Shown here one piece after another: positions 14,893 to 62,760 of a DNA stretch of 64,000 nucleotides (position 1 is its first letter; every line of letters begins with the position of its first letter). Source of the DNA: Nitrospirota bacterium (GTDB lineage Bacteria > Nitrospirota > UBA9217); NCBI GenBank assembly GCA_963737155.1, contig CAVTRN010000002.1:2656001-2720000 (forward strand), given 5' to 3'. A program made the position numbers and the translations under genes. Below the pieces are notes generated by a model, which was given only the letters and a program-made list of their open reading frames with translations, had not been told where the DNA came from and made no database searches.

Positions 14893-14986
14893 AAAAAAGC
14901 ACGTCAAAAACAGGATGCGAGCGCATCTCCCCACTTCGGCCATTCTGGTGCCCGTCATGTACATGCCAGCAGCAAAGAACACTGAT
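14893..14986 (-). ncRNA. Candidate cis-regulatory RNA motif, copy D (degenerate), followed by a U-tract
   Basis: AUCAGUGUUCUUUGCUG-stem-GCACCAGAAUGGCCGA...GAUGC...GCUUUUUU, colinear with copy A at 62670-62760. Confidence 0.5.
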
Positions 14987-15123
14987 CATTTGTTCTTCAA
15001 TATTTCTTCGAACTGTTCCACTAGCTCGACAGTCCCACGGTTGAACTTAATCTTGATCGAGCCCGTGAACTTCCTGTCCATGAGTGTCTTGATAAAACCA
15101 ATGATCTTTGTCAGTTTTTCCAT
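14986..15123 (-). CDS. 45-aa small protein, YezD/DUF2292-like; not in ORF track
   Basis: MEKLTKIIGFIKTLMDRKFTGSIKIKFNRGTVELVEQFEEILKNK with AAGGTGGAG RBS; paralogue of 59135-59335. Confidence 0.75.
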   Translation of the reverse strand: MEKLTKIIGFIKTLMDRKFTGSIKIKFNRGTVELVEQFEEILKNK

Positions 15124-15396
15124 CACTCCACCTTTTGTGCCCGCAATTTTGGATTATTATTGAGCCCTGTTGCACAAATCCCATGACATTAGTATGCGAA
15201 TTATAGAATATTTGGCCATCACAAATCAGGGAGATGAATGATGGCCTATAATTCCAAGGAATGTAACCACGAACAGACCTATCTTCTGGCACCCGTATCG
15301 CAAAGGTCGCAAGATTCTGAGCGGGAATCTGGTTCTGATCGATTACGCTATATCGCCGATAAAGTCTTCTGGGCTGACTGTTTTATTATGAGACCG

Positions 15397-16221
15397 TTAA
15401 TAACAGCGGTTCAAGACCAGCCCCAGAATCTTTTCCTTCGGAAGATACCGAAGAGCCTTCTTGACGTCGTCCTTTGAAGTCTTGCCAGCCTGAACAACGA
15501 CAAGGATCTTGTCTACCAGAGGCGCCATCGTCAGCACGTCGGCACCGGTTAGGATGGGAGGCACGTCGAAGATTATATACCGTTCAGGATAGCGGCTCTT
15601 TACGCTTGATACCAGCTCCTTCATGCGGGGAGAACCGAGGATCTCGGAGCTTTCATGCTGCAGGCGGCCGCCGGAAATAATCGTCATTTTCTCTATGCCG
15701 GTCCATGTGACCAGCTCTGAAACGGGCGAGCGGCCGGCAAGGTAATCCATGAGCCCCTTTTCTCCCCCGCAGCCCAGGTATTTATGGATGCTCTGCTTTC
15801 TCAAATCGCCGTCGACCAGCATGACTGTATGCTGGAACTCCCGCGCGATGGCGATGGCGAGATTGATGGCGGTGACGGTCTTTCCCTCGCCCGGGAGTGC
15901 GCTGGTAACCATGATCGTGTTGGCGCCCGAGTCTCTTGTCCGCTGCAGGACCTGCGTTCGCAATATCCTGAAGGACTCCGCCTCCCTGGTGTTGTCCAGA
16001 TACAGGAGACAGCGGTTTCTGGCGAGAAGCAGCGGGTCCAGAATGACCGACTGTGACTGGACATACGCCGGCGATATCCATCCAGACTGTTCCTTGTACT
16101 GTTCAGAGGCAGTATCCCAGAGGGAAGGCGGCGGTTTTTTCAGGTGCCCATTTCTGCCATTCTGTCTGATAAGGGCGATCGCTTCCTTGATCTTGTGCAT
16201 CATCGGTTCTCTCCTTCGCAC
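15397..16221 (-). CDS. BY-kinase / CpsD-CapB family polysaccharide tyrosine autokinase
   Basis: ESFRILRT, TSALPGEGKT (Walker A), VDGDLR, IFDVPP. Confidence 0.92.
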   Translation of the reverse strand: MRRREPMMHKIKEAIALIRQNGRNGHLKKPPPSLWDTASEQYKEQSGWISPAYVQSQSVILDPLLLARNRCLLYLDNTREAESFRILRTQVLQRTRDSGANTIMVTSALPGEGKTVTAINLAIAIAREFQHTVMLVDGDLRKQSIHKYLGCGGEKGLMDYLAGRSPVSELVTWTGIEKMTIISGGRLQHESSEILGSPRMKELVSSVKSRYPERYIIFDVPPILTGADVLTMAPLVDKILVVVQAGKTSKDDVKKALRYLPKEKILGLVLNRCY

Positions 16222-16234
16222 CAGAGCAGCTTCG

Positions 16235-17806
16235 TTACATGGTCGTATATTTCATTATACGGATCCAGAGGATATCAATATCCATCACAAAGAAATGGAT
16301 GATCAGGACACTGATCAGTATGAAGAGAAACGAAGAGACAACGACTATTCTAAACCGTTTTTTATTGCGCAGTTCGTCCTCAAGCGTGACGATCTCCGGA
16401 ATCTCCGCCAAGACGGGGAAAGCGAAATTCCTTGTCAGATCTTCCGCATTTCGGGCAGATCGGTCGGATACCTCCTGGAGAGATGCAAGCCCCACTCCGG
16501 ATGCGATACCGAGAATGAGCCCGATCAGAAGGACGACCGGTCGGTTCGGACGTACTGCTTTTTCGGGGAGCTTGGCCGGATCGATCAGCGTGAACCGTTC
16601 ACCCATCTGCTGCTTTTCCAGTCCAGAGGCCACTTTGGCTTCCATATACTTTTTCATGAGATCGTCATATTTAGCCTGGGTGTTGTTCCGTTCTACCATC
16701 AGGTCCTTGAACCCCTCCTCTACTTTGGGAGATGCTTCCAGCCTGCGCTGAAAATCTTTCCGCTTCAGATTAATGCCCTCGATTTGCAACTTGATGGACT
16801 TGATATCCGCCTGAACGCCGGCCAGATCCGAGGAGATCGAAACGTAAGCGGGATTGTCCGGTTTTTTCTCAACCGTGGGTTCGCTCACTTTTTCCTGGAG
16901 CCTCTTTTCTAAAACAGCGATCTCCGACTTGGTTTTGATCACGTCGGGGAATTCCTCGGAATACCTCGCCTTCAGGTCGACCAGGGCAACACGCAGTTCC
17001 TTCAGCCGATCCTTGTCCTGGTTGGTCGCATCCGGCGCCATTGTGGCCAGTTCTGATTGGTAGTATTTCTCCTTATCCCGAAGTGCACGGAGTTGCTCGT
17101 TCAACTGATCCCAGTTCCGCTCATCCCAATCCAGTGATTGCAGGTTGAATTGTAGCAGCTCGGGCAGCGCCCTATTGTGCTGCTCCTTGTAAACCGCGAT
17201 TTTCCTTTCCAGATCGACAAGTTCGGCCTGAACGGACTTCATTTCCTCATCCAGAAATTTTGTCGTACCTTCCGTCTGCTGTCCCACAACCTTCATGTTC
17301 TCCTCGAGATAGAGGGATGCGAGCTCCGTCGCGACCTGCTGGACCACCTGGGGATTATGTCCCTCGTAGGAGACGGTAAATGCGATAGTAGCAGCGGTTT
17401 TCTGTCCCGTTCTCCGGTCGATGACGTCGGCCATTATGGTGTCAAACTTAATGTCCTTTTTTTTCATGTTATCGATGATCTCTTCCGTCGTCAGCTTGTC
17501 CCGCTTATCTGCATATAGGTTGAATCGGTTGATGATCTCGAGCAGCCGACCAGCGCTCATAATCCGCTGGTTGATGATTTGCAGCCGCTGTTCCGCGTAG
17601 CTCGTCACAGCCGCCATCACGTACTCTCGGGAGATTTCCTGCTCCTCAATCAGAATCGTGGACGTGGAACGATAGACAGGCTTCCAGATCAGGATAACCA
17701 GCACGGAGAGCAGAGGGACGATCAGTGCTGGCATAATAAGCGCCCAGCGCCGCCTTTTGATGATCCTGATCACATCTTTGGTACTTGTTATTTTGGCTTC
17801 CTCCAT
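16235..17806 (-). CDS. Polysaccharide co-polymerase / chain-length determinant (Wzz/GumC family)
   Basis: N-terminal TM, PVYRS, coiled coil, IDPA.LPEK...PNR, C-terminal TMs. Confidence 0.9.
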   Translation of the reverse strand: MEEAKITSTKDVIRIIKRRRWALIMPALIVPLLSVLVILIWKPVYRSTSTILIEEQEISREYVMAAVTSYAEQRLQIINQRIMSAGRLLEIINRFNLYADKRDKLTTEEIIDNMKKKDIKFDTIMADVIDRRTGQKTAATIAFTVSYEGHNPQVVQQVATELASLYLEENMKVVGQQTEGTTKFLDEEMKSVQAELVDLERKIAVYKEQHNRALPELLQFNLQSLDWDERNWDQLNEQLRALRDKEKYYQSELATMAPDATNQDKDRLKELRVALVDLKARYSEEFPDVIKTKSEIAVLEKRLQEKVSEPTVEKKPDNPAYVSISSDLAGVQADIKSIKLQIEGINLKRKDFQRRLEASPKVEEGFKDLMVERNNTQAKYDDLMKKYMEAKVASGLEKQQMGERFTLIDPAKLPEKAVRPNRPVVLLIGLILGIASGVGLASLQEVSDRSARNAEDLTRNFAFPVLAEIPEIVTLEDELRNKKRFRIVVVSSFLFILISVLIIHFFVMDIDILWIRIMKYTTM

Positions 17807-17823
17807 AATAGACGCTCCTGTGA

Positions 17824-19787: not shown

Positions 19788-19815
19788 AATCCGTATGCTC
19801 CTCCTTTTTATTAGA

Positions 19816-23594: not shown

Positions 23595-23606
23595 AAGGGG
23601 GAAATG

Positions 23607-25178: not shown

Positions 25179-26134
25179 GGGCAGACCACATCCCTGCCAT
25201 TCCATTTGTTCCGCGCGATCCAAAACAGAGGCACCCAGATTTTCCGCCGGATGAGGTGACCCACGCTCCCGATCATCCAGCAGTTATGGTCGCAACAGCC
25301 TACCCGTTGCCGCGCCTCTGTGGCCTCCGGACTGATCCATATCTCCGAAAAGGGCTTTTCTTTTATGTTCCCGAAGGCCTGGTTCATGACGTTGCAGGGT
25401 CGGACATCGCCGAAGGGGTCAATGAAAAAGGAATCGCTTGCCATGGTGCACTTCAGCTCCCTCTGCCCTCCGTGCATATGCTCCACGATCCCCTTCGTGA
25501 AGTATGCGCGGAACCAGTCCTTAGGATGGAAGGATTTGAGGTATTCGTGCATGAGCTTCCGTATTTCGGCCTCAACACGGTGCTTGTCGTTGATTACGTT
25601 GTCTTCCTTGTGGAAATAGTAAGCGTTGTGAAGGATGGCGGTTGCCAGCTCCACGTCGTGTTCGCAGGCAAGCTTGTACAGCGGCACCAAATCTTTGGCA
25701 TTCTGGTCCGATATCGTCACGGCAATGCCCAAGTCCTTGATGCCAAGTTTTTTGAGGCCCGTCAAGCTGTCCAGTGCTCGGCGGTGGGCTTTGGAAACGC
25801 CCCTAACCCGGTCATGGGTTTCGCCGATGCCGTCAAAACTGATCCTGATTCCCACGTCCTGGCGATCTTTCATAACCGCAAGGATCTTTTTTGTCGCGAA
25901 CCCGTTCGTACTGATCACGACCCTCTTCGCTTTGCTCTTGACCACGTCCAGGACATCGCCTAAATCGTCACGCAGAAAGGGTTCTCCGCCGGTGATATTA
26001 AGCCTGTTGAGAGAAGGCAGTGTCTTCAGGTCATCCGGCCTAATCTCGCTATTCCGGTCGCTTGGATATAGCCATGTATTGCACATGATGCAGCGGCTGT
26101 TGCATCGATAGGTTACTGCCACGATCCCGTCCAT
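25175..26134 (-). CDS. Radical SAM / SPASM protein
   Basis: CNSRCIMC, TGGEPF, C-terminal Cys cluster. Confidence 0.92.
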   Translation of the reverse strand: MDGIVAVTYRCNSRCIMCNTWLYPSDRNSEIRPDDLKTLPSLNRLNITGGEPFLRDDLGDVLDVVKSKAKRVVISTNGFATKKILAVMKDRQDVGIRISFDGIGETHDRVRGVSKAHRRALDSLTGLKKLGIKDLGIAVTISDQNAKDLVPLYKLACEHDVELATAILHNAYYFHKEDNVINDKHRVEAEIRKLMHEYLKSFHPKDWFRAYFTKGIVEHMHGGQRELKCTMASDSFFIDPFGDVRPCNVMNQAFGNIKEKPFSEIWISPEATEARQRVGCCDHNCWMIGSVGHLIRRKIWVPLFWIARNKWNGRDVVCP

Positions 26135-52200: not shown

Positions 52201-55200
52201 CGCTGCCCCGGCGCCGTGAGCGTTATGCTCCCCAAGGGTGCTGCCAGAGTCACGCCGTTTTCCACGTCGATCCCACCGAGGCCCTCAATGGTCAGCCTTC
52301 CGCCCGCCGAATAGATAGGTCCATTAGCGGCAGTATCTTCAGGCTGGATCGTGTGTTGCAGGGTTACTTGTCCGTCGGCATATACTGTGTAGTCGGAGTA
52401 CATATCCGGATAGACTGTGCTGCCACTTTTTAAGGAATAATAAGTGCCAGGATATATCCGCTCCGCATCCAGTACCAGGTTTCCCGTGGTGGCCAATTGT
52501 CCAGGGGCTACAATTCCGTTTACGACATTATTATTGTACAGGGCCTGGCTCAGGGTAATGTCCCGAGCTGCCTGGAGCACCACATCGTCAAACCCCACAA
52601 AGTTCATGGAGCCGATCACATCGATCCATTGGCTGGTAAGCGTGATCTGAGAACCGGTGGTCGTTGCGGATGGTAGCTGCGCCGGCGAGTTAGTCGTATT
52701 GGTCAGAACAATCGAGGGTGCGTTTATTGCGACGTTGATTCCGGCGGCACCTGTGATCTCCGGCGCATCCAGTGTCAGTTTCTGGCCTATCGTCATATTA
52801 CTAATGGAGTTGCTGAAGATTAGAGAGTTCGGGCTCCTTAATGTCAGATTATTGAAACCCTCGGAGAGATAATAGCCCAGTTCAAGGTTACTGATTGACA
52901 TCCCCATGCTCGTATCCAGCATATTGATTGTCAGGCTGCCTCCACCGAGTCCGGCTAGTCCAGCATTTCGGGCTGTCACCGCACCTTGCACATTCAGATT
53001 GCCCCCCGTGTTTCCATAGGTAAGGGAGACACTGCCGGGGCTGCTTGCATCTTTATAGGTAACGTTCGTACCGTCTGACGCTTTAATCGTGTTCTGAACC
53101 ACCTCCGATCCCGACACATCAATCCATGCCGAGGCCGACAGTGTCAGATTTCCAAATGCCGACAAGGCCACATTCCCGCCGTTCACCGGCTGGTAGTTGA
53201 GTTTGAATCCTGCTGGCGTTGATGACGGATCGGGTTGGTTGTATCCTGTAGCAAGAATACTGGCATTGTCCCCGGCACTGTCTCCAACAACGAGATCGAA
53301 CTTCGTTGCCTGAACGCTGATATTGCCGCCAGGCGAAGAAAGCGTCCCATCCATGGCTACCGACGGCCCGGACAGGGATATCTGGGTATTCACTGCAGCC
53401 GCATTGACGGGGGTGTTATTTGCGATCCTGGTGACCGATGACACTTCAGGCGTTGTTTGAATTACGGCTCCGGGCGAAATAGTGAGGCTGGCAGTGCTGT
53501 TAGCCGTATTAATTAAGTTATTGCTAAAGATTGAGCTGCTGCCCACAAAAGAAACCCCTGCGCCAGCCACAAAAGAGGAGGGCCCTGCCATAAATGCATT
53601 AGAATCATTGAGAAGAATGAGGTTGCCAGGAAGCTCAGTCCCGTAAACCGCTTGTCCCTGGCCTTGCGGAGAAACACCTGAACTGCCTACTGACACGGGG
53701 TCATTCAACCGGACAAGCGATGGACCAATGGTCGTACCTGATTCCACTACGAGGTCGTTTATGCTGTTCAGGGTGATTTGGGTGAAACCTGTATTGTCCA
53801 GCCTGTCGCCAGCCAGCACGAACGATCCCGAAGGAGCTGAGGCTCCGCTGCCAACATATATCTCTTTTGATGCAAGCGTAATGGAGCCTCCGAGAATATC
53901 GCCGCTCGAATTAGCCAACGCATAGCCATGCAGATTGCCATCCAGTTGGATATTGGATCCCTGAATGCTCAGCGTTCCCGCATTCCCACCGGTAACATTG
54001 CCCTTCTGGTCAATGGTGTAGCCGCCGTCAACATTTACCACAGCTCCCGTCTGGATATACACTCCGGTCCCATTGTCGGTTTCATCCATAATCGAGATGC
54101 TGCCGCCGGTGGTCTGACCGTACTTAAGGGAGGCCGTGCTACTCGTCCCGACGTTGGAGTTATCGATCTTTTCGCCGGATGCATCGAGCAGGCTGCCCGA
54201 TTCCAGGATTATATTCTCAGTGAGGGGGATATAATTGCTGTTCTGGTTTCCGTTGGCGCCAATTTCGCTCGTGGAGTTCTGCACGGTGGTCAAACTGATC
54301 GAACCCCCATGGGACGTGATCTGGCCCTGAAAATCGAGCTGTCTGGCTGATGCGGAAAATGAACCCCCCGGCTGAAGCATGATGCTGGCATTGGATGCCG
54401 TGTCAATTATCAGGTTTGCGAAGAGATTCAGGCTGCCCAGGTTCGCATCGTTCACAATCTGCGCCGAGAGCAGCGTGGGCTGCCCTGCCGGCAGTATGGA
54501 ACCGGGGGTAAGGTCTGTCTGAGGATCTGTTGCAGAAAGAATAGAAATAGCCGCAGGATTGTTTGTTGCTGTCGCGCTCTCCGTGCCTATGTTGAGCGTT
54601 CCTGCCCGCGGCGCTTCGAGACCCTGCGCCTTGGAAAGCGCCAATGCATTATCGTAATCCTGCGCATTGGCAAATGACCCCTGCATGGTCCAGGTATTCT
54701 GATATTTGCCGCTCGTCGCGCTGCCATTGAGCTGTCCATCCAGGACGACCGTAGATGCCGCGAGTGTGACCGTGCCTGCATCGCCACCCTGAGTATAGCC
54801 CTTCACATAGGTCATCAGCGGAGAGGCTCCACCATAGTAAAGACCTGAAAAGGACTGCTTGATGCCATACCCGTTATACGCTTCCACGTAATTTCCCAGA
54901 ATCGCGTTATATTGAATATCGGCAGGGGCATTGCCGATGTCATAGATATTCGTGCCTGAAAGCATTTGCGTCGAATTCACCATCCCCCCAAGGTAAGTGA
55001 TAGCGCCGCCGGAAAAGTTTAGCAAAGCCCCTTGCTTGACAATAATATCTCCGTTCGTGGCTGATATATTTATGCTGCCGGTATAAGCCGTATAGGAACC
55101 ATCCGCGTTTGGCGTCATCGCGCCACCCACCAGGCGCTCCTGCGCGGTCATTTCACGTCCTAGGATCGCCTGCGAGATATCCCCTATGGCGGATCCGGAC

Positions 55201-56639
55201 GTTATAGGGGTGGTGACATTCTCCCCCTGCAAGACACCGCCCTTCTGCGTATAGTCGTCCCGAAGTTCGATGCTGTTCAGTTGGATATCGACGACCGGCG
55301 CGGGAAGGGTAGCTACGACCCCGCTCACGTCGATGCTGCTGCCGGTTTCCAGATAGGCCTGTTGAGAGGCGCTGATTGTTACAACACCTGCCGGCGCAAC
55401 GATGCTGCCCTGCAGGTCGATCTGTGCAGCCGTATTCCGGCCGCTGTCCAAACCTCCTATGAAAACTTTGGGCTGGATGTCAAACGTGTCGTCGACAGTG
55501 GGGAGTTGACCAGTCGCCGGGTCCACTGCATCGTTGACGGGTAGATCAATGACGCTGTTTGGACCTGTGGTGATCTCGTTTGCGGCCCTCAGCTCCACCT
55601 GCCCCTGATTGTTCTGGAAGGCAGTCACGGAGCGGATGATTCCCCACTGGTCGACGTTGTTCCCGTACATGCCTACCATGCCTCCGTCGGCGAATAAATT
55701 GCCGTTATTCGCCGCCCGGCCGAAATTGACGTCATTGCTTACGAAACTGGGATTATTGCTCTGGGTTTCAGTTGAGAAGTCATCTTCGACGATTACATAA
55801 TAGCCGTTCCTCGTCGTGTCGCCTTGGGCCGGGGGCTGCAACAACACGTCTGTCCCGGCGGCAAGGCCAACCTGCCCGGCTGGAGCATTGATGGTACCGA
55901 AGTTTTCCACGCGGGGAGCAAAGAGAAAGGCAAATCCTCCGTTTGCAGCGTCTATCTCCCCAAAAGACGAGACTGCTGCTAGCACATTCGGGTTGCTCTG
56001 AGCCTGGTAGTTATCCAGTGTAAACTGAAGATCATTGTTTAGGAAATTCGCATCAATGAGGTCAAGAGCCGAGGCCACCAGGCCGTTCACGTTTACCCTG
56101 GAGCCAGGCCCGAAAAGGAATCCGTTCTGATTGATGAGATAGATATTGCCGTCCGCCTTTAGCTGCCCGTAAATTTGACTGGGATTGGCGTCCCAGATAC
56201 GGTTCAGGGCAGTCCAGCCCGCATTCCCCTGCTGATTGAAATAGACCGATGAGTTGCTGCCAATATTGAAAGTCTGCCAGTTGATGATCGCGTTCTGCTG
56301 ATTCTGATATACCGTGACCTGCCCACTGTTGGCATTGACGGTTGATGCGATACCCTGATTCCCTTTGCTGGTATCAAGACCCGAGTTGCTGCCTTGGATC
56401 GCAACCGGGACCTCATTGGTCGGGACAGCGGGAAGCGAAACCCCGTTATAGAAGCCTGGGATGCTGAGCACCACAGCCGGGGAAGCGGACGCAGTGGGCA
56501 CTACGGGGACTAAGATGCGCGCGGCAGCCGATCCCTGAAACCCAGGGATACTGACGGCCCCGGCCAACGCGTAATGGGGAAATAGGAGCAGCACACAGCA
56601 CAGCAACCGCAGCATCATATGAAAAAAGCTGGTTTTCAT
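46224..56639 (-). CDS. TpsA filamentous-haemagglutinin-family exoprotein with C-terminal DUF3739-like domain (PdtA-like)
   Basis: Signal peptide; TPS domain (AIINWQTFNIG, SQIYG.L.A.G.IYLINQNG); beta-helical G/N/S/T-rich repeats; C-terminal SRVMTFYGGDITIWS..GSINAGRG and AP.GIIDAGEAGI. Confidence 0.9.
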   Translation of the reverse strand: MKTSFFHMMLRLLCCVLLLFPHYALAGAVSIPGFQGSAAARILVPVVPTASASPAVVLSIPGFYNGVSLPAVPTNEVPVAIQGSNSGLDTSKGNQGIASTVNANSGQVTVYQNQQNAIINWQTFNIGSNSSVYFNQQGNAGWTALNRIWDANPSQIYGQLKADGNIYLINQNGFLFGPGSRVNVNGLVASALDLIDANFLNNDLQFTLDNYQAQSNPNVLAAVSSFGEIDAANGGFAFLFAPRVENFGTINAPAGQVGLAAGTDVLLQPPAQGDTTRNGYYVIVEDDFSTETQSNNPSFVSNDVNFGRAANNGNLFADGGMVGMYGNNVDQWGIIRSVTAFQNNQGQVELRAANEITTGPNSVIDLPVNDAVDPATGQLPTVDDTFDIQPKVFIGGLDSGRNTAAQIDLQGSIVAPAGVVTISASQQAYLETGSSIDVSGVVATLPAPVVDIQLNSIELRDDYTQKGGVLQGENVTTPITSGSAIGDISQAILGREMTAQERLVGGAMTPNADGSYTAYTGSINISATNGDIIVKQGALLNFSGGAITYLGGMVNSTQMLSGTNIYDIGNAPADIQYNAILGNYVEAYNGYGIKQSFSGLYYGGASPLMTYVKGYTQGGDAGTVTLAASTVVLDGQLNGSATSGKYQNTWTMQGSFANAQDYDNALALSKAQGLEAPRAGTLNIGTESATATNNPAAISILSATDPQTDLTPGSILPAGQPTLLSAQIVNDANLGSLNLFANLIIDTASNASIMLQPGGSFSASARQLDFQGQITSHGGSISLTTVQNSTSEIGANGNQNSNYIPLTENIILESGSLLDASGEKIDNSNVGTSSTASLKYGQTTGGSISIMDETDNGTGVYIQTGAVVNVDGGYTIDQKGNVTGGNAGTLSIQGSNIQLDGNLHGYALANSSGDILGGSITLASKEIYVGSGASAPSGSFVLAGDRLDNTGFTQITLNSINDLVVESGTTIGPSLVRLNDPVSVGSSGVSPQGQGQAVYGTELPGNLILLNDSNAFMAGPSSFVAGAGVSFVGSSSIFSNNLINTANSTASLTISPGAVIQTTPEVSSVTRIANNTPVNAAAVNTQISLSGPSVAMDGTLSSPGGNISVQATKFDLVVGDSAGDNASILATGYNQPDPSSTPAGFKLNYQPVNGGNVALSAFGNLTLSASAWIDVSGSEVVQNTIKASDGTNVTYKDASSPGSVSLTYGNTGGNLNVQGAVTARNAGLAGLGGGSLTINMLDTSMGMSISNLELGYYLSEGFNNLTLRSPNSLIFSNSISNMTIGQKLTLDAPEITGAAGINVAINAPSIVLTNTTNSPAQLPSATTTGSQITLTSQWIDVIGSMNFVGFDDVVLQAARDITLSQALYNNNVVNGIVAPGQLATTGNLVLDAERIYPGTYYSLKSGSTVYPDMYSDYTVYADGQVTLQHTIQPEDTAANGPIYSAGGRLTIEGLGGIDVENGVTLAAPLGSITLTAPGQRIYLANGSVVTTAGTTAVNYGLIDSNGIWETEDNANPEGADSASSTQFSANSLPGESITLNANEVITKGGSVIDVSGGGSIFAYAFQPGVQGSVDPLTIPGSYIVFKDNSFAMPGTAVDLQGGGGLSAGMYTMLPLNANDPQNARYAFLPGAYILQAQSATSLPGPTSLSSGGYPLVVGYSAVADTAIQSSRPEVFSVRLAQDVLAQEGNYEMQSATLGNAGTISITGATTVLDGSLKATALSGYNGGTLSLAATNISVQSSAASLLPSNFGFNSTLEPSLRGTLTISADSISGQSFSEVDLGNSSTDSVTIMPGVALNAGAINLTAAQAVTLESGASLGVVQAATGKSGTNQIAITTPGQLTIASGASVYASQGITLDVNNVEDISGQLKSDSGNLTLQSSAIFFGLDGGKQSTDVGLYLTSTLWNQFATFNNITLVGNNDIQFRTNFTGSSALSAGNSLTLDSAQIIGANSNGTSVTLAAPIVNLTNSGTSSAAITPAPANPGTFTVNANQINIGSGDVLFGGFSAIGLNSMNDLTFMGQGSLTTGNANLSISAARVTTASTTMTVNNSYGTSATAVTAANFTIYTGANYYNDQNNPNPTGSITITNSGGTPGATSTPGGILNFEGSSIAQGGVIQVDGGSIMLSAAGPGQTNGVTLLSGSQLLARGTDDAPGGQVVLKSANGSVVVEGATVDASGATIEPASLIDVSAGSQGDAGLISLQAPLGGVLINGDLKGNSQGGAGGSLVVDTYQTSNLNSNMINTDMTQLMGTISAGGFTESVDIEALTGNINIAAGQTLQASTVKLTADDATAGQGQINVSGTIEGSEGGNVELYAMNDLTIQSGGIVKAVASTAGSTGGSVLLSSEQGWVNVNGSIDVSGGAGGTGGTIYLRAQRYVNSNNDNDVQINLGGTLQGASAVYAEAVQTYQYSQSSLVIDPLINTWLNEAVSFATDNASLERLQVGAPTGASFYILPGIEVVNSGGNITMTNPVNFSLLGFDNNPGVLTIRAAGNLNINGDLTDYPAYEASGSPITSITTAPTVRSSWAFNLAAGADTSSADPLAVNSRGNGDLNIANGVVVYTESAPIRFASAGDTIIGTAPANPGFMINGELGEAMSYNLASFNGSINGYVGRDLTIAGSIQTATGDIDISVGRDLDLLVGNDPSNDGAGAIRTTGQLTQAAASAALGTDPLDPVIIDPATNLPIQGVKQNGPQSTAYYWRYDGGGDINLSVGRNVGKFSNGQWTIAEDTLGDTSGPTGWDMFTTIGVILPSAPKNYNISYGVFSADYLDGTAGLATMGGGNLVVRSGGDFLAQAGTFSSGNLTIYSGGNVMGRFLNEDGQGEINAMGNFGAYDPSSKIDERVQIELFNSQMNVTAQGEIQIGAVLNPTLASDAVEAYRNSDFVQCTYTPDTSISLSAGTDVTIEGNSPFYNNHQISDNTDSPLYEQVLPATVNVTAGGDIFLFNNFVMTSSPTGNLSLNAGGSVLGYSSTSATTNVQSASILMSDIAPQNWYGLFDIYDYQVEQNGHWILTRDTNNHGLYDPSNGTWSFMEPLHEQDNQPVTIQAGADISNLNMAFPKEADITAGQDIQDITYVGQNINETDVSTIRAGGDITMQYAKASTTGNSTIVDQPPHEGLIQGGPGVFMVQAGGSIDLGSLPDGIQAVGNGNNFELGTEACALVILSGYGFNTSAADIQTFFNNIRTAGDTYAELLAEGNLSEAAQLLQTTRQDTIDPLLGTPTGAGDINMTSSQISTSIGQSDIYVIANGSINLGLTALPTPGTVSNTTGITTGGGGAINIFSSQDVNVNESRVMTFYGGDITIWSDQGSINAGRGASTSVSAVPPKKEKTAQGLYITVFTPPAIGSGIRAVTYGENPPPPGNIHLFAPSGIIDAGEAGISGGQITLAALHVSNVANISFSAGSIGVPQTSEGASLGTLAGSSITQSNQATADASGLSAENVQAAQMVENIIAKWLEVDVIDFVVDDNNNQNSY

Positions 56640-56658
56640 GAGCCCTCCCTATCCATTG

Positions 56659-58242
56659 TCAAAACACGGCCCTCAGTTTAAAATAGAACCTCAGGTCTCT
56701 GCTCCTTGTCTGGTCCGTCGCGTCCATGGCCTTGGCTTCGTCAAACTCGTATTCCAGGTTCCTCGCCATCGTGCCGCGTATTCCCAACCCCGTCCCTTCA
56801 AGCTTGATAGCGCTCTCCGTTCCGGGGAGCGGATCCAGAACAGTCAACTCGGCCATGTCGTAGAAGAGAAAGGGGGTCACCTGAAGTCCCCCGGAGTGTT
56901 CGAGAGGGTTTGGGAAAGATATTTCCACTGTCGTATGCATGGCTTCATCGCCCGAAGCCTCACTTTCCTTGTATCCTCGCACGCTTTCCATGCCTCCCGC
57001 GATATACTGCTCATTACTGATGAGCGGTTGCTGGGATGCCTGCCCATCCACTTTCACGAAGAGGTTCATCCCGTGGGGCAGCTTTTGGGTGCGCTGTATG
57101 GCCGCTGTCGTGTAGGCATAGTCCGCCGTCCCTTTGTAACGTTTGAGCTCAAACTCGCTCTCCTGTGCCACCAAGCCGCGGAAGGATATGTTCTCTCCAA
57201 GGTTAAACACGGTCATCCCTCCCCATTCATCCGACAGGGAAGCGCTATACGTGAATGAAAATGGCAAATAAGAGATGGGTGTATGCGTTGTCTGGCCACT
57301 TACCGTTGTGTAACCTACGGCTTGATCAAATTGCTTGTAATCTATGCCAAAGGTAAAATTATGCGTATAAAGATGGTACTCCGGCAGCAGTGTCACGTAG
57401 CGGGTCCCGAATATCTTCCCCTTACCTATGACCGTGAATCCCTCGCCGAATGCCGTAGCGCTGTCCGACCAGATGCCGTAAAGGGCCCACTGGTCGTTCT
57501 TCTCCCACGGAGCGGGAAGAACGTAAGAAACATTCACTACCTCCACCTGGCTTGTGTCTTGGGGCGACGTCTGGTACTGAAAAGTCAGGGAATGCTCCTT
57601 TTGCCAGAGATTGTCGTAGTGAATCACTGCGTTCAGACGTAATGGAGTCGTGTCATAGGTGTTCCTGTTATTCAGTTCCAGATACCCATGCAGGGGAAGC
57701 TGGTCTTGCACCTTGAGCTCCACATCGATGGTCCCCATTTCCCTGGCTGGCGACATCACAGGCTCGACCTTGAAGTCCTGACTCCTGTTCAACTGGCTGA
57801 TCTCCTTCTGGACCTGGGGCAAATAGAGGATCATGCCAGGCGTTAGGGACGGCAGGTCTCTCAGCACTTTTTCCATTGTGAAATACCGGTTGCCAGTGAT
57901 CCTCACCCTGCCGATCCGGCTCTCTATCACCTGAAGTTTGACGATACCGTCCTCCAAAGTCTGTGCAGGTATGTTCACGATCACGGCCGGATACCCGGCC
58001 TCGTGGTATTTTTTTTCCAGCGAGTCCCGGGCCTTTTCCACGTCTTTCACCGTTCTATCAGGGCCGGTGAAAAGGATTACGGCGGCACGCACCTGATCAT
58101 CGGTAAACAGGCTGTTGCCGGTTACCTCAAAGGCCTTGATCTCGAAGCCTGGTTTTTTGGTTTCCTGGGCAGAACAAAGCCCGGCCATGAACACCGCAAA
58201 CAGGACCGTCAGTAAGAAGAGCCGCCAACACCTCGTGTTCAC
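56659..58242 (-). CDS. TpsB (ShlB/FhaC/HecB) transporter
   Basis: POTRA domains (F.V.GNSL, Y...GY), GGMESVRGY motif, terminal Phe. Confidence 0.93.
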   Translation of the reverse strand: MNTRCWRLFLLTVLFAVFMAGLCSAQETKKPGFEIKAFEVTGNSLFTDDQVRAAVILFTGPDRTVKDVEKARDSLEKKYHEAGYPAVIVNIPAQTLEDGIVKLQVIESRIGRVRITGNRYFTMEKVLRDLPSLTPGMILYLPQVQKEISQLNRSQDFKVEPVMSPAREMGTIDVELKVQDQLPLHGYLELNNRNTYDTTPLRLNAVIHYDNLWQKEHSLTFQYQTSPQDTSQVEVVNVSYVLPAPWEKNDQWALYGIWSDSATAFGEGFTVIGKGKIFGTRYVTLLPEYHLYTHNFTFGIDYKQFDQAVGYTTVSGQTTHTPISYLPFSFTYSASLSDEWGGMTVFNLGENISFRGLVAQESEFELKRYKGTADYAYTTAAIQRTQKLPHGMNLFVKVDGQASQQPLISNEQYIAGGMESVRGYKESEASGDEAMHTTVEISFPNPLEHSGGLQVTPFLFYDMAELTVLDPLPGTESAIKLEGTGLGIRGTMARNLEYEFDEAKAMDATDQTRSRDLRFYFKLRAVF

Positions 58243-58248
58243 CTGCCG

Positions 58249-59154
58249 CTACTCTCCGCTCTGGACGAGCTTTGCGTCTTTGATCTTTTCCACGGTTACA
58301 CCACAGAACAGCGTTTCTCCGCCAAACTGGTTTCCAAAGTCAATAGTAATGACTTTGTCGTCAACATCCGAGATACGACCAACCATGACACCTGCCCGGA
58401 CAATCGCTCCTTTGTGCGCATCTATGTCCATCTTATAGTCTTGGCCCTCTTCTCTGATGCGTCCAGGGCCAAAGGGGGTATTGATAATGGCCCCGGGCGT
58501 AGCAAACAACCTTATCGTAACTTCCTTGTCTGAAACGGCCTCCACCTTGCCTGGGAAATCGGGATCGTAGGTATATTCCTGTCCCACCTCAGGGGACCGT
58601 TGAGCCAAGTGTTCGTAATCAGCCTTCGGCATTTTCATTTCCTTGGGTCGCGTACGGATCCGGGTCAGGCGTGCGATATATTGCGGGGCTAGCTCCGACG
58701 GCACGTCTTCTGCCTTGATCTCCGCCGTGCCGGTATCGCCTACCTTCATGCCAACGATCGCCTGTGCCAGCTGATGCGATATTTCCTCTTCAAGGGATCG
58801 TTGCTCGTAGGGCCGCTGTTGCTGTACGGCATCGGCGGCGCTCAGTGCCACAAGCGATAGCGGACCTGTCTCCTGACGCTGCCTATACAGATTCGACTTC
58901 CGTTGGCTTTCCTCCACGCTGTCCGTTGCAGCCACGACTTCGCCTGACTGGAGCCGGCACAGAAAATGAACAGAAGCTGTATCTCCAGGTTGCACATGCC
59001 TCTCCTGTGCGACAGCAGTCGCGCGATCGGACTGCAGGGTCTGATGCGTTCCTTGGGTAGCACACCCTGCGAGTGTCAGCAGGCAAACGAATATCTGAGG
59101 CAGCCGCTGGAGTACCGTCTGCGTTTCTTTCTGGCTACACTTCATGTCGTACAT
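58249..59154 (-). CDS. FKBP/SlyD-like peptidyl-prolyl isomerase lipoprotein
   Basis: LAGC lipobox, VQPGD..SVHF, IVGMKVG, IDF.NQFGGETL. Confidence 0.75.
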   Translation of the reverse strand: MYDMKCSQKETQTVLQRLPQIFVCLLTLAGCATQGTHQTLQSDRATAVAQERHVQPGDTASVHFLCRLQSGEVVAATDSVEESQRKSNLYRQRQETGPLSLVALSAADAVQQQRPYEQRSLEEEISHQLAQAIVGMKVGDTGTAEIKAEDVPSELAPQYIARLTRIRTRPKEMKMPKADYEHLAQRSPEVGQEYTYDPDFPGKVEAVSDKEVTIRLFATPGAIINTPFGPGRIREEGQDYKMDIDAHKGAIVRAGVMVGRISDVDDKVITIDFGNQFGGETLFCGVTVEKIKDAKLVQSGE

Positions 59155-59335
59155 CCCTTTCCCCGCTGACCTGCTTCATGGCGGCATTCACTGGATTAAT
59201 GTTCGCGGCATCAAACTCTTCCGATTTTTCGATTCGACCGATACTTCCCTGACTGATATTGATCCTGATGTAACCGCTGAACTCTCCTTCTATAAGAGTT
59301 TTGATCGTTTCGCTGAGTCTTTTCATCTTGTCCAT
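59135..59335 (-). CDS. 66-aa small protein, YezD/DUF2292-like
   Basis: MDKMKRLSETIKTLIEGEFSGYIRINISQGSIGRIEKSEEF...; GAGGTG RBS; paralogue at 14986-15123. Confidence 0.75.
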   Translation of the reverse strand: MDKMKRLSETIKTLIEGEFSGYIRINISQGSIGRIEKSEEFDAANINPVNAAMKQVSGERDVRHEV

Positions 59336-59409
59336 AGGCACCTCGCGGCAGCGGAAAAAGAGCTGCATTGTCCTTATTCTGGATAAGGCTTACAGTTTTA
59401 ATCGGTTAA

Positions 59410-59560
59410 GAGTGAATTACCCCGCAGCAAGCTGCGGGGCATCGGAACTTGAAACCTTAAAAAAGCACAACAAAGAAGCTGAAGACTTATCCTGGCTTCG
59501 CCAGGATGTCCTTTTCATCCCAGCAGCAAGCTGCTGGGTATTTCAGGACTGTTTTATAAA
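59410..59560. mobile_element. 151-bp MITE (family A, copy 2, inverted)
   Basis: Near-identical reverse complement of 37477-37627. Confidence 0.85.
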
Positions 59561-59716
59561 TTTCTACCCAAGAGGGGGGAGGAATTTACCAAGAAAAAAA
59601 CGCAGCGTTCGAAATTAGAAGCCAAGTTCCGATCTTATCTTCTTGAACTTCTGCGGAATCTACTTCGAGCCCTTCTCTGATAATAGGTTTTAATTTTTTT
59701 TACGGCTAGTCCTGGT

Positions 59717-59797
59717 CGGGAAGCGCAAAAGAGGAATAGAGAATTGCGGGCTTCCCGGTCGTTGATGCGAGTCATGCATCAATTCAGCAAAGTACCC
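59717..59797 (-). ncRNA. Candidate cis-regulatory RNA motif, copy C, with overlapping competing hairpin
   Basis: GGGUACUUUGCUG-AA-UUGAUGC/GCAUCAA-CGACCGGGAAGCCC; the 3' arm can instead pair with downstream UUGCGCUUCCCG. Confidence 0.65.
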
Positions 59798-59814
59798 ATC
59801 GCTAACGATGGCCG

Positions 59815-59869
59815 ATCTTAGCAATGTTATGTTAAAGCAGTATTACAATTGGATAAAATTTTAGTGACA
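59815..59869 (-). promoter_or_regulatory. Pho-box-like array with -10 element for the TPS/EPS operon
   Basis: On the - strand TGTCAC, TTTTAT, TGTAAT, TTTAAC at an 11-bp period; TAAGAT begins 16 bp after the start of the last unit. Confidence 0.7.
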
Positions 59870-59994
59870 ATGACCTCGATGAAAGAGATAAAATCTGATT
59901 GAAAAACCGACGGTTGTCTCGTGACGATCAAAATATTTTTTTTCTCATTCGAGGACATAAGCCGTACTTCCGCGGTTAGGCCCCTACCAGTAGC

Positions 59995-60026
59995 AAAAGA
60001 ATGCGGGGCTCTTAACAGAGCCCCGC
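59995..60026 (-). terminator. Intrinsic terminator after PstS-like gene
   Basis: GCGGGGCTCT-GTTA-AGAGCCCCGC followed by ATTCTTTT. Confidence 0.7.
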
Positions 60027-60071
60027 GAAAGTTACAACCAGCTGCGGTGTTTTACAAGCTGTAGGTGGGAA

Positions 60072-61367
60072 TTAGTTGCAGTTGCTGTTCTGATAATTGG
60101 TATTAATTGACCAGCCACTGAAGTTCGATTGCTTGACATACTGCATATGGCACTGAGCTGCCCAGTATATATTGTTTGCTTCCACTGTACTGGGCTGGTC
60201 TGAGTATGTGCAAATGTCTAAATACAAGGGATTCGTGGAATTGGCTAACGACACATACACGTTCTCAATCGTCATGAAAGGATTGGTCCATGTTTGAGTC
60301 AACGGCGTGTACGGAATTTGGTTGTCAAGGCTGAGGCGGGTCGTGTTGCCATAATTGGCAAGGTTCTGGTCCACATCGGCAAAACCGACTGCGCCCGTAC
60401 CTGACCAAGTGCCGCTGCCGTTGACGCAGTTCATCATATCAGCTGATCCGTCGTTGAACCAAGCATGATAACCGGTTCCACCCGAAATCTGGGTAGTAAG
60501 CAATGTCTGGGGCTCCATGAAAGCAGCCAAGGTTGCGAGGGTACCTGAACCTGCAGCGCGGAAACAGGCATTAATAGGCATGGCGGGCATGCTAAGCACT
60601 GTTGTTCCAGTTCCGCCAGATACAATCCCTTGCAGATCAGACCAGTCCTTGACAGCACCAGAGAAGATCATCTTCGCGCTTGCTGTGCTGAGGTTGTTGA
60701 GCACTGTCCCAGCCGACGTGAGTACGGAGTTGTTTACGTAGAACGAGAAGGGGATCGCGAGCGGACGGCAGAGGTCGACTACGTTTGAGCTGACCGTAAC
60801 CGGGTCAAGAAGAAAATTGTGAACTTCAGATGCTCCGCCAAGAGGTCCGTTCAATGTGCCGGTGGTATGCTGTGTGAAGTCTTGCAATAAAACGTCAGAA
60901 GCGCCGATAGTTACGGGCACACACAGCGCTGCAGAGGTGCATACGCCGCCGGAGCAAGAGCTGGGATCGGCCATAGGACGATCGTAAGGACTCGAACAGC
61001 TCGTGTTAGAAGCAAAGGGGTTGGTCGTGTTGCCGTCGATCGCGAGCGGGCCATCATAGGAAGCCTTGGAGGAAACGCGGAAGTTGACCGTGGTTCCGCC
61101 ACAGTTTGCCTGCTGGACGAAGTTCTTATTGTCCGTGGTTGTACCTGAAACGCCATTGGTGCAGCCCGCTGCTTGGAGGTAGTTCGGGGCTTCGCGCTTC
61201 CAGTATGTAAACTGGGCTGAAGATCCCCAGACATTTATGTCCGCTGTGGGCATGGTCGGCGAGCTGGTTCCCGTTTGGTATATTGTTGTTCCTGCCGATG
61301 CTGCTCCCACGAATGCCAGGAGGGAGACGCCGGCTATAGCTGAGGCGAAGATATTCTTGATCTTCAT
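60072..61367 (-). CDS. Secreted Cys-rich PstS/DING-like phosphate-binding-fold protein
   Basis: Signal peptide; GSSA, S..S.DG, GASDV, IFSG.V.DWSDL, R.AGSGT, GAVGF motifs of the PstS fold; 12 Cys. Confidence 0.75.
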   Translation of the reverse strand: MKIKNIFASAIAGVSLLAFVGAASAGTTIYQTGTSSPTMPTADINVWGSSAQFTYWKREAPNYLQAAGCTNGVSGTTTDNKNFVQQANCGGTTVNFRVSSKASYDGPLAIDGNTTNPFASNTSCSSPYDRPMADPSSCSGGVCTSAALCVPVTIGASDVLLQDFTQHTTGTLNGPLGGASEVHNFLLDPVTVSSNVVDLCRPLAIPFSFYVNNSVLTSAGTVLNNLSTASAKMIFSGAVKDWSDLQGIVSGGTGTTVLSMPAMPINACFRAAGSGTLATLAAFMEPQTLLTTQISGGTGYHAWFNDGSADMMNCVNGSGTWSGTGAVGFADVDQNLANYGNTTRLSLDNQIPYTPLTQTWTNPFMTIENVYVSLANSTNPLYLDICTYSDQPSTVEANNIYWAAQCHMQYVKQSNFSGWSINTNYQNSNCN

Positions 61368-61448
61368 GTAATTATTCTCCTTGTGATGTAGGGCTCCTTA
61401 AGGAGCCTCAAATGTGAAAGGTTAAAGCACTGAATCGGTATCAGACCA

Positions 61449-62240
61449 TTAGGCAACCATTTTCCTGCGCAGGCCGATAAGACCAAGCAGACCGGAGCCG
61501 AAGAGGTAAACAGCAGCCGGAATTGGCGTGGGGGACGGCGTGCCTGCCAAGACTGTTACGAGTTGACCACTGGAGTTGACCAAGGTTTCGAGCGAGGCGA
61601 CAGCCGTGCCCTTGATGTCTGTAGTACTGCCATCCGGAGTGGCACCGTAGTAATAGAGCATCTGGTTCACATAGCCGGTGGTTGAAAGCGCAGCAAGATT
61701 CATTTCAGCAGTGTTACCGGGAACAGTCTGGTCCAGATAAGTGCCCATCGTGCCGACTGCGTACCCGGCTCCATTCATGTTTGTCCAATAGGAACTCGCG
61801 TTGCTCTGCAGCGATGACGCATTGTTGCCAACGGCAATCGAATTGTAATACGGCAGCACCGTTGACGCGTTGAGTTGGAATCCTGACCAGAATTGACCGG
61901 GAGCGGCAGTAGCGCCGGTTGTTGGACCGCTGGTCCAAGCAGCGCCATTCCCGCTATTAAGGGTCGAGGACATGATGAAGTAGCCAACATTCGCATTGCT
62001 CCAGCTGGTAGCCCCTGCTTGGCTTAAGCTGACGGTGTCCGTGGTGTCGTTCAGGTACGCGCCGCTGCCTGGGGCGGTCAGGCTTGAAAAATTACCCAAG
62101 TCGGTGGCATACTCCGTGCCGGAACCGGTTCCGCTGTATACTACGCGGATCAAATCTCCTTCGCTAAAAGCGGCCATGGCTTTTCCGCTCACACCGAGCA
62201 TGAGCAGGGCAACCATCATGAGCATCATGATCTTTTTCAT
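61449..62240 (-). CDS. VPLPA/PEP-CTERM exosortase substrate protein
   Basis: Signal peptide, S/T/G/N-rich body, C-terminal TPIPAAVYLFGSGLLGLIGLRRK. Confidence 0.92.
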   Translation of the reverse strand: MKKIMMLMMVALLMLGVSGKAMAAFSEGDLIRVVYSGTGSGTEYATDLGNFSSLTAPGSGAYLNDTTDTVSLSQAGATSWSNANVGYFIMSSTLNSGNGAAWTSGPTTGATAAPGQFWSGFQLNASTVLPYYNSIAVGNNASSLQSNASSYWTNMNGAGYAVGTMGTYLDQTVPGNTAEMNLAALSTTGYVNQMLYYYGATPDGSTTDIKGTAVASLETLVNSSGQLVTVLAGTPSPTPIPAAVYLFGSGLLGLIGLRRKMVA

Positions 62241-62381
62241 TGTTTTCTTCTCCTGAGTTTTGAAATGGGTTAATTGTTTCTACTGCCGAACGGCCTTTTT
62301 CGCTGCGTACGACTCCTTCGTGGTTTATCGCCCTCTTCGCTATGCGACCGGAGTTCAATGCGCTTATGTGTGGTCCGCTGG

Positions 62382-62476
62382 TCAGTATCTTCCCCTCAGG
62401 CAACCCGGCCATCCACCACTGTGGGATCCGTGGGCTTTCCGTCATCCGGTTACCCGGATTTTGGCTTTATACTGAA
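62382..62476 (-). ncRNA. c-di-GMP-I (GEMM-I) riboswitch
   Basis: AAAGCCAAA-AUCCGG-GUAA-CCGGAU-GACGGAAAGCCCACGGAUCC..GGAUGGCCGGGUUGCC with GNRA loop; closing helix UCAGUAU/AUACUGA. Confidence 0.88.
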
Positions 62477-62583
62477 GGTCGGATGCGGGCTTTGCGCCGA
62501 CATCCTACCTGTTTTTACGCCAAAGCATTACAGTCGTTCTTGCCCTCCTTTCTTATTGGAATATTGAACCCACCGGTTTATGC

Positions 62584-62659
62584 AAAAAAACTCTCACTGA
62601 AGTTCGGCAGGCTCGCGATCCGGGCTTCCTGTTCCCTTTCCCAGGTCAGCCAAGTACCC
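62584..62659 (-). ncRNA. Candidate cis-regulatory RNA motif, copy B, with downstream U7 tract
   Basis: GGGUACUUGGCUG-ACCUGGGAAAGGGAA-CAGGAAGCCC. Confidence 0.6.
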
Positions 62660-62669
62660 AAATCGAAAT

Positions 62670-62716
62670 AAAAAAAGCCCGATACGAGATGGAAGCATCC
62701 TCTCGAATCGGGCTTT
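62670..62716 (-). terminator. Intrinsic terminator in the leader of the PEP-CTERM gene
   Basis: AAAGCCCGAU-UCGAGA...UCUCGU-AUCGGGCUUU-UUUU. Confidence 0.8.
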
Positions 62717-62760
62717 CTGGTGCGCGACAAAACATTTGTCGGTCAGCAAAGGACCCTGAT
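62710..62760 (-). ncRNA. Candidate antiterminator RNA motif, copy A
   Basis: AUCAGGGUCCUUUGCUG-AC-CGACAAA/UUUGUCG-CGCACCAGAAAGCCC; AAAGCCC is shared with the terminator 5' arm. Confidence 0.65.

Follow-up and report, generated by a model that had tools for sequence, protein, structure and literature searches.

A bulged RNA stem-loop overlapping terminators in the leaders of PEP-CTERM-type genes, and a co-occurring microprotein, in Nitrospirota- and Desulfobacterota-labelled genomes

The locus and its features

The 64,000-nucleotide (nt) stretch of DNA studied here (the window; positions 2,656,001 to 2,720,000 of contig CAVTRN010000002.1 in the Nitrospirota bacterium assembly GCA_963737155.1) carries on its minus strand an exosortase-associated surface locus in whose 5' leaders a bulged stem-loop motif recurs, together with genes for two very small proteins, hereafter microproteins 1 and 2 (mp1 and mp2). 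An earlier note, made from the sequence alone, took four copies of this motif and the two microproteins for a candidate antitermination system. The motif is a new RNA class, which belongs to no Rfam 15 family and counts more than 100 instances, and we read it, with a probability somewhat under one half (about 0.45) for the statement as a whole, as a cis-acting transcription attenuator in the leaders of PEP-CTERM-type genes that is probably held open by the microprotein. The main features are listed here from high to low coordinates (aa, amino acids; bp, base pairs; R1, the covariance model described below).

About 63095-63155, minus strand: fifth motif copy, decayed (aligned to copy A and to a 23.8-bit copy in a relative)
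62710-62756, minus strand: motif copy A, with bulged helix P1 and hairpin P2 (R1 57.9 bits, E 4e-14)
62670-62716, minus strand: intrinsic terminator that shares AAAGCCC, as its own 5' flank, with the 3' arm of copy A (A plus terminator -37.9 kcal/mol, z -5.2)
62622-62659, minus strand: motif copy B, whose P1 contains a G.G mismatch, without overlapping terminator (R1 52.4 bits; orthologs in 7 relatives)
62558-62621, minus strand: conserved long hairpin abutting copy B (GGAUC..CCUGCCG...CGGUGGGUUC..UUCC; RNAalifold, 7 genomes)
62543-62550, minus strand: Shine-Dalgarno-like box (AAGGAGGG; GGAGGUGA in most relatives), without start codon at normal spacing
62396-62475, minus strand: cyclic di-GMP (c-di-GMP-I) riboswitch aptamer (RF01051; 57.4 bits, gathering score 35)
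61449-62240, minus strand: 263-aa secreted protein with a PEP-CTERM-type (VPLPA-like) tail by weak matches, the conserved downstream target
60072-61367, minus strand: 431-aa secreted PBP-like protein, conserved second gene (PF12849, E 3e-6)
60003-60026, minus strand: strong intrinsic terminator closing the A/B transcription unit (10-bp stem with 8 GC pairs, T-rich tail)
59748-59797, minus strand: motif copy C, in the 5' leader of mp1 (R1 56.0 bits)
59717-59757, minus strand: competing hairpin that uses the 3' arm of C (GGGAAGC..GCUUCCC), without U-tract (fold of 59690-59797, -29.3 kcal/mol, z -2.8)
59135-59335, minus strand: mp1, 66 aa, long type with canonical residues (orthologs of 56-91% identity in 6 relatives)
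23607-25223, minus strand: XrtD-like exosortase with a fused EpsI domain, sorting enzyme for this locus (PF09721, E 8e-65; PF11984, E 2e-39)
14986-15123, minus strand: mp2, 45 aa, short type, divergent, a paralog of mp1
14938-14986, minus strand: copy D, decayed ortholog of the motif found behind short-type microprotein genes (alignment with relatives)

Motif copies in the window

A strict pattern for the two arms of the motif matches the whole 4,837,362-base genome three times, always within the window (copies A, B and C), and the 5' arm alone gives two further genome matches, both apparently in coding regions. The covariance model R1, built on the basal helix only from 21 pattern-found copies in related genomes, scores A, B and C at 52-58 bits when run over the whole window with filters off, which bears out three of the four minus-strand copies of the earlier note at their coordinates. 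The fourth, copy D, gives no R1 match up to E<=10 in the same scan and none to a loosened two-arm pattern in the genome pattern search; its 5' arm, allowing two mismatches, is at chance level (7 such matches as against 4.3 expected, with at least 7 in 14 of 100 shuffles), and its fold is no better than that of shuffled sequences (z +1.2). Because it aligns base for base with intact units of motif and terminator which, in relatives, come after the ortholog of the microprotein gene, D is, on this alignment, counted as a decayed motif copy and not as a chance resemblance, and it has decayed together with the divergent mp2 that adjoins it. Some 330 nt downstream of D lies an IS630-type DDE transposase gene (13581-14609, minus strand), whose insertion may have cut off a former target of the mp2-D unit. 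The fifth copy, in which the 5' arm and P2 are still recognisable and the 3' arm is gone, is contained in a tandem duplication of ~395 nt of the promoter/leader upstream of A (62890-63290, minus strand; repeat families D2 and D19).

None of the copies A-D matches a family of Rfam 15 at the gathering score or at E<=10, the only other matches being to riboswitch and, by chance, small nucleolar RNA families; the suspicion that the motif had no described family was thus well founded. A sigma-54 promoter reading of the 5' arm was ruled out by the wrong GG-to-GC spacing, as counted on the sequence. Direct TGTAAY repeats at 62831-62880 and 59821-59850 (minus strand), upstream of A and C, recur upstream of the orthologous copies of relatives and are candidates for a promoter or operator; a different upstream word, GTCATGAAC, accompanies the dispersed motif copies of three large genomes. 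Between C and mp1 there are two copies, 87% alike, of a 23-nt GC-rich palindrome of the CCCCGCAGCAAGCTGCGGGG type (59420-59442 and 59519-59541; family D10), insertions that stretch the mp1 leader to 413 nt compared with 94 nt in one relative. The public sequencing runs listed for the region are five soil DNA runs, with small shares, and no RNA run is among them.

Structure and covariation of the motif

The motif is built from a basal helix (P1) that is bulged and nearly invariant, an inner helix (P2) that covaries, and an AC bulge on the 3' side. Copy A alone folds into the helix drawn in the earlier note (-15.9 kcal/mol, z -2.6) and copy C nearly so (-14.3 kcal/mol, z -1.6), whereas the minimum-energy fold of copy B lacks it (z -1.0), so that the single bulged helix ascribed to all copies holds for A, almost for C, and not for B folded on its own. 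As had been read by eye, the differences between A and C are U-A to U-G swaps that preserve pairing, and B has a G.G mismatch. To examine pairing in a larger sample, we used 107 model matches (103 distinct) for P1 and 93 distinct inner segments for P2; in the 90 instances scored for terminators, the inner segments between the arms measure 12 to ~40 nt. In P1, 97.2% of 1020 cells are paired, versus 45-63% with the partners slid, and changes on both sides occur in four of the ten pairs (12 cells), in an alignment fitted to a model that was itself trained on pattern-selected copies. Pair 9-88 is UA in 62 cases, UG in 17, CG in 6, GU in 1 and something else in 17, and pair 12-86 is UA in 87, UG in 11 and CG in 2; these counts favour the register of the earlier note over the alternative proposed by RNAalifold.

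The P2 pairs were counted in a fixed register, with no alignment or fitting, and 232 of their 279 cells are canonical, against a mean of 183 and a maximum of 198 in 1000 trials with permuted partners. Pair 1 is canonical in 85 of the 93 segments (mostly CG), pair 2 in 76 (CG 54, UA 15, UG 3, GC 3, AU 1) and pair 3 in 71 (UA 45, CG 10, GC 7, GU 5, UG 3, AU 1), and the two-nucleotide 3' bulge is AC in 63/93 and AA in 16/93. The G-U pairs that fill 17 and 11 cells of the two P1 pairs, together with a strand bias (of the 71 R1 matches in microprotein loci, 66 have the same orientation as the microprotein gene), place this covarying structure at the RNA level, on the transcribed strand, as originally supposed.

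Overlap with terminators and downstream leader elements

When copy A is folded with the 40 bases that follow it, its 3' arm is taken up by a long terminator hairpin with a run of seven U behind it, and none of 200 shuffled sequences folds equally well. The sharing of AAAGCCC between antiterminator and terminator that the earlier note had seen is therefore solid, and since A alone reaches -15.9 kcal/mol versus -37.9 with the terminator, termination would be the default and the stem would need a stabiliser. A simple terminator scan overlooked this hairpin because its stem is bulged. The same mutually exclusive design is found in 57 of 90 distinct instances, in which a hairpin that starts with the motif's final 7-8 bases runs into a U-tract, as judged by a heuristic of our own script (a hairpin of -10 kcal/mol or stronger plus a U-tract). 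It comprises 12 of the 14 A-type copies of the window's own family and most copies in Desulfobacterota-labelled loci, and it is kept in both Nitrospirota- and Desulfobacterota-labelled records. A variant of the motif, GGGCCCUUUGCUG...CAGAAAACCC, occurs in two genomes, G079 and G077 (loci L064/L188; L052:19120-19157), with a G to A change in the 3' arm. This change is matched in the 3' half of the terminator (GGGUUUU) and unmatched in the 5' arm, and because it is compensated on the terminator side only, the covariation there supports the terminator helix; G079 carries the variant without any microprotein.

The two other well-preserved copies of the window are followed by different structures. 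The U-tract after B, which the earlier note had pointed out, is not conserved, sits in the loop of a conserved downstream hairpin and was rejected as a terminator. That hairpin (62558-62621), in which six pairs change on both sides among the seven genomes, occupies the place of the terminator seen after A. The 3' arm of C can form a competing hairpin, as claimed, with GCUUCCC as its downstream partner; GCTTCC is found in five of seven orthologous C leaders, and RNAalifold run on these leaders does not pick the hairpin out.

Further elements follow the motif within the leaders. The Shine-Dalgarno-like box, close behind the terminator, stands 42-132 nt beyond the motif in relatives. Of 102 instances, 45 have GGAGG at most 160 nt past the motif and 5 have it upstream; for the longer form GGRGGKGA the counts are 26 and 3, respectively, at a median of 65 nt past the motif. 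A seven-codon open reading frame (ORF; MLWRKNR) starts 16 nt past the box in the window and in one relative. The c-di-GMP-I aptamer, absent from the earlier note, sits between copy B and the first gene, which encodes the 263-aa PEP-CTERM-type protein, and the same series of motif and then c-di-GMP-I riboswitch is present in 13 of the 19 related loci scanned.

Target genes and the surface locus

The gene that follows the motif usually encodes a secreted protein of 200-350 aa ending in P-x-P, a hydrophobic helix and RR. For the 263-aa protein of the window, the tail matches VPLPA-CTERM at E 0.02 and VPDSG-CTERM at E 0.006, in each case short of the cut-off, and in the alignment of its family (A11) the P-x-P, the hydrophobic stretch and the RR are invariant. 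Homologs of this protein account for 18 of the 30 ORFs compared downstream of motifs, and in three large genomes dispersed motif copies stand before further PEP-CTERM-type genes, of 198-553 aa. After the PEP-CTERM gene, related loci have a second gene of 400-630 aa. The exosortase of the window scores 163 bits with TIGR02602 (cut-off 105.55) and 374.9 bits with TIGR04152, the latter below its 400-bit cut-off.

The minus-strand gene cluster spans 62240 down to 15397 and encodes, in addition, a PrsT-like TPR protein, chain-length determinants, a Wza-like exporter, glycosyltransferases, Wzy, a flippase, TonB/ExbB, a porin, and SurA-like and FKBP-like proteins. A two-partner-secretion pair follows mp1 and an FKBP-like gene in the same cluster; it is formed by a TpsB/ShlB-type transporter (56659-58242) and a 3471-aa ORF (46224-56639, minus strand). 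We found no PrsR or PrsK among the six plus-strand ORFs at 3841-12344 scanned with NCBIfam. The idea that the microprotein licenses read-through into the whole ~47-kilobase (kb) locus goes beyond the data: the good motif copies are confined to two 5' leaders, which the terminator at 60003-60026 separates, so that control of all 47 kb is unsupported, and elsewhere the conserved target is a single PEP-CTERM-type gene and its neighbour.

Distribution across genomes

The two-arm pattern is present in 7 of 61 related genomes, whereas the reversed pattern used as control matches none of the 61. With R1, the motif is detected in 10 of the 64 genomes of the own family at E<=0.01 (5 of 19 genera; 54 genomes without match) and in 22 of the 81 genomes of a second, unrelated family, reached via a Desulfobacterota-labelled locus (59 without match at E<=0.001), so that the model finds the motif well beyond the window. 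Copies A, B and C are orthologous types in conserved synteny, in which A is followed by the terminator, B and, after ~3 kb, C. We also collected 70 microprotein loci from species-representative genomes, whose record titles name Nitrospirota, Syntrophales, Smithella, Syntrophobacteraceae, Desulfobacterales, Geobacteraceae and, in a few cases, 'Proteobacteria'. An R1 match occurs within ~4 kb of the microprotein gene in 49 of these 70 loci, within 400 nt past its stop codon in 23 and within 1.2 kb upstream in 7. In the literature searched we found no account of the RNA or of the microprotein, and none that connects either of them with PEP-CTERM proteins.

The microprotein family

The two microproteins are paralogs, as first proposed (35% identity over 40 residues, E 1e-8), and the only two members of their family in the genome. 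A profile built from 12 homologs retrieves 567 protein clusters at E<=0.01; among the matches listed, none of 120 microprotein clusters has a Pfam domain. Family members come in two forms. The short one, of 43-45 aa, ends in FEEILKK and usually has a motif-terminator unit directly after its gene; the long one, of 62-85 aa, carries a tail rich in Lys and Glu. In the own family, the long-form gene (the mp1 ortholog) has a C-type copy ahead of it in 7 of 7 genomes. The divergent mp2 is off consensus at four of seven near-invariant positions (S22, K26, L34 and Q37). AlphaFold2, given 60 sequences, predicts a helix (residues 2-16) and a beta-hairpin (21-28 and 31-39) with a mean predicted local distance difference test score (pLDDT) of 85; a predicted homodimer scores 0.38, versus a mark of 0.42.

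Searches for relatives of the microprotein yielded little. Neither mp1 nor mp2 has a meaningful match in Pfam or NCBIfam (none in Pfam at E<=10), the sequence profile has none in the PDB at E<=10, and the model has none in the PDB with Foldseek at E<=0.001; a wide VIA-align search gave as best match a MinE domain (Z 3.7), which is uninformative, and the best ESM Atlas score, 0.78, is under the useful range. The upstream neighbours of the microprotein gene vary (OmpH, secretin, STT3 and DNA ligase), and no second conserved regulator is found among the 10 ORFs examined in 8 loci.

Co-occurrence of motif and microprotein

The suspected link between microprotein and motif extends across phyla. Among the 64 genomes of the own family, 8 encode the microprotein and 10 have the motif; the 8 are exactly those with at least three strong motif matches, and the two others have one weaker match each, without the protein. 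Among the 81 genomes of the second family the figures are 18 and 22, with the motif in 18 of 18 protein-bearing genomes, four genomes with the motif only and 59 with neither. Five genomes whose microprotein locus lacks a nearby motif all carry it elsewhere, before a PEP-CTERM gene. The protein thus implies the motif in 31 of 31 genomes, and the motif the protein in 26 of 32. Each genome has up to 8 motif sites and one or two protein genes, which resembles one trans-acting factor serving a regulon.

A possible mechanism and its alternatives

From the observed motif, structure, terminator overlap, targets and co-occurrence we infer a switch, with the microprotein as its ligand, that would operate as follows. 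The nascent RNA would first form P1, in which GGG-UA-CUUU-G-CUG pairs with CAG-AAAG-CCC, capped by the variable P2 with its 3' AC bulge. As the AAAGCCC arm doubles as the 5' flank of a far stronger intrinsic terminator, transcription would end there by default, and a factor clamping P1/P2 would withhold AAAGCCC and let the RNA polymerase read on, across the GGAGGUGA box and often the c-di-GMP-I riboswitch, into the PEP-CTERM gene. The likeliest clamp would be the co-inherited protein of 43-85 residues, predicted to consist of one helix and a beta-hairpin, whose gene commonly lies just upstream of one such attenuator. In the window, A would be the working attenuator; B and C are terminator-less copies and D is a relic; the position of C in the leader of the canonical microprotein gene suggests autoregulation. 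That the motif is a regulated attenuator seems to us probable; the role of the microprotein as its clamp is a possibility that we advance with some reserve. Held with much the same reserve is the idea that the 43-45-residue protein itself is a sequence-specific RNA-binding antiterminator, in which case it would be the smallest stand-alone one known, would make up with the motif a portable module gating exosortase substrates in Nitrospirota and Desulfobacterota and, in series with the c-di-GMP-I riboswitch, would be part of a two-input gate for biofilm-matrix proteins.

Several observations weigh against attenuation by a microprotein clamp. The terminator overlap is found in none of the 8 C-type copies and in none of the 7 syntenic B copies adjoining A in the own family, and the absence of an overlapping terminator at B and C leaves these copies unexplained by attenuator logic. 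The arms look nearly invariant in part through ascertainment, the model having been trained on pattern-selected copies. The microprotein has no match to any RNA-binding family or fold in Pfam, NCBIfam, the PDB, Foldseek or VIA-align. Moreover, four genomes (G150, G126, G123 and G079, the last 98% complete) have convincing motif-terminator units and no microprotein detected at E<=0.001; in G150 and G079 these units precede PEP-CTERM genes, and an extra fifth match in G126 is a false positive within a coding region. The genomes with the microprotein are exactly those with a full-length homolog of the 263-aa PEP-CTERM protein (8 of 8 and 18 of 18), and in several Desulfobacterales-labelled loci the microprotein gene abuts the PEP-CTERM gene with no motif between them, so that the link between protein and RNA is confounded with a protein-protein or operon link and the microprotein could serve the surface protein instead of the RNA. 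Finally, related genomes are non-independent samples, and the components are physically linked.

In the strongest alternative, which we nonetheless regard as unlikely, the motif would act by itself as a riboswitch, or be bound by some other factor, and the microprotein would be a partner or chaperone of the PEP-CTERM protein that shares only an operon with the RNA. The motif-terminator units without detectable microprotein, the exact tracking of the 263-aa family by the microprotein and the direct adjacency of their genes would all fit, as would the tandem arrangement of the motif with a bona fide riboswitch, and small bulged-stem aptamers within terminators are known, for instance in the HMP-PP/thiS riboswitch. 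However, not one of the 31 protein-bearing genomes is without the motif, the one or two protein genes per genome face up to 8 sites, the Watson-Crick positions of P1 are invariant across phyla, which would be more typical of recognition by a protein, and the neighbouring genes point to no candidate ligand.

An element that does not switch at all, whether a constitutive 3' end or insulator, an RNA-stability element or a small RNA derived from the 3' untranslated region of the microprotein gene or from the leaders, is improbable. Motif-terminator units do often end the microprotein gene, and the terminator is very strong, but most units are in PEP-CTERM 5' leaders, with later leader elements and a riboswitch that have meaning only under read-through, and ordinary terminators do not keep an invariant upstream complementary arm across phyla. 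Even less probable is ribosome-coupled attenuation, in which the microprotein ORF would be a leader ORF and the ribosome at its stop codon would cover the 5' arm of P1, thereby choosing between P1 and terminator. In 11 of the 24 short-type loci that have a motif downstream, 0-11 nt do separate the stop codon from the first G of the motif, yet the distance is 26-443 nt in the other 13, most copies (A, B, C and the dispersed ones included) have no such upstream ORF, and the peptide is conserved over its full length and predicted to fold, unlike a leader peptide. A DNA-level operator or inverted repeat for a transcription factor, which the conserved and roughly inverted arms might evoke, is hardly credible in view of the widely varying arm spacing, the covarying hairpin that forms the spacer, the 28 cells of two P1 pairs filled by G-U (A-C on the other strand) and the orientation that follows the gene strand.

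If the microprotein is the clamp, its pairing with a 40-nt RNA site is small enough for direct testing with synthetic peptide and RNA and, if confirmed, would be a compact antitermination tool. The arrangement in series with c-di-GMP-I suggests combinatorial control of matrix and surface proteins in sediment and soil anaerobes.

Comparison with known systems

The microprotein had been likened to YezD (DUF2292, PF10055), which it resembles in size, in the prediction of a helix and then a beta-hairpin, and loosely in sequence pattern (aromatic-G-x-hydrophobic-x-I ... E-K-x-E). This assignment finds no statistical backing: a six-frame genome search with the PF10055 hidden Markov model gave no match at E<=10, and hhalign, comparing 60 microprotein with 21 DUF2292 sequences, returned a probability of 0.39% (E 0.15) over 21 columns that correspond to the residues alike by eye. 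Within the phylum, 28 of 301 genomes have true DUF2292 genes, and none of the eight own-family carriers does; in the own family they are found in 2 of 63 genomes, both of a non-carrier genus.

A close analogy is with the antiterminators BglG, SacY and LicT and their RAT (ribonucleic antiterminator) elements, which likewise are bulged imperfect stem-loops, sharing the bases of their 3' side with the start of an intrinsic terminator hairpin; here too, by analogy, protein binding would favour the stem and hence read-through, and one regulator would serve several sites. The candidate here differs in its 43-85 aa, its helix and beta-hairpin and its lack of PRD domains, and its targets are surface proteins instead of sugar operons. 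The motif also looks unrelated in sequence to the RAT consensus. The CAT RNA-binding domain (PF03123) has no match at E<=0.01 in the genome, which is 100% complete, and the control matched in four named genomes; because of this absence the motif, although it would work like BglG/LicT with RAT, belongs outside that system. The ANTAR domain (PF03861) also had no match in the genome, but its control matched in no genome either.

In Bacillus, HutP (hut operon) and PyrR (pyr operon) are encoded first and their attenuator follows, PyrR having several attenuators per operon; these regulators are of roughly 150-180 aa and sense histidine or UMP. The order of microprotein gene and attenuator recalls theirs, and the differences are that we found no similarity of the microprotein to either protein in the PDB profile, Foldseek and VIA-align searches and that no ligand is evident here.

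Among PEP-CTERM systems, the PEP-CTERM box of Proteobacteria, as outlined by Haft et al. (2006; PMC1569441), is a DNA element composed of a sigma-54 -24/-12 promoter and a TTTACA-type PrsR site. The likeness lies in a conserved cis element within long PEP-CTERM leaders and in a phylogenetic profile that matches a dedicated regulator; the box described there is a promoter element in DNA, whereas here we have an RNA stem-loop with a terminator and a spacing unfit for sigma-54, and we rejected the Proteobacterial box as the identity of the motif. The same account mentions many PEP-CTERM genes, within and outside Proteobacteria, with long leaders and no known regulator, a gap that the motif would fill in at least two phyla with a mechanism at the RNA level. 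Leaders with tandem riboswitches, c-di-GMP-I (GEMM-I) ones included, also have two regulatory RNAs in series, and the downstream one here is a standard c-di-GMP-I aptamer; what sets the present leaders apart is an upstream element that has no Rfam family and comes with a linked protein. Systems of this kind are known; what is new here is the class of RNA, the family of proteins and the pairing of the two.

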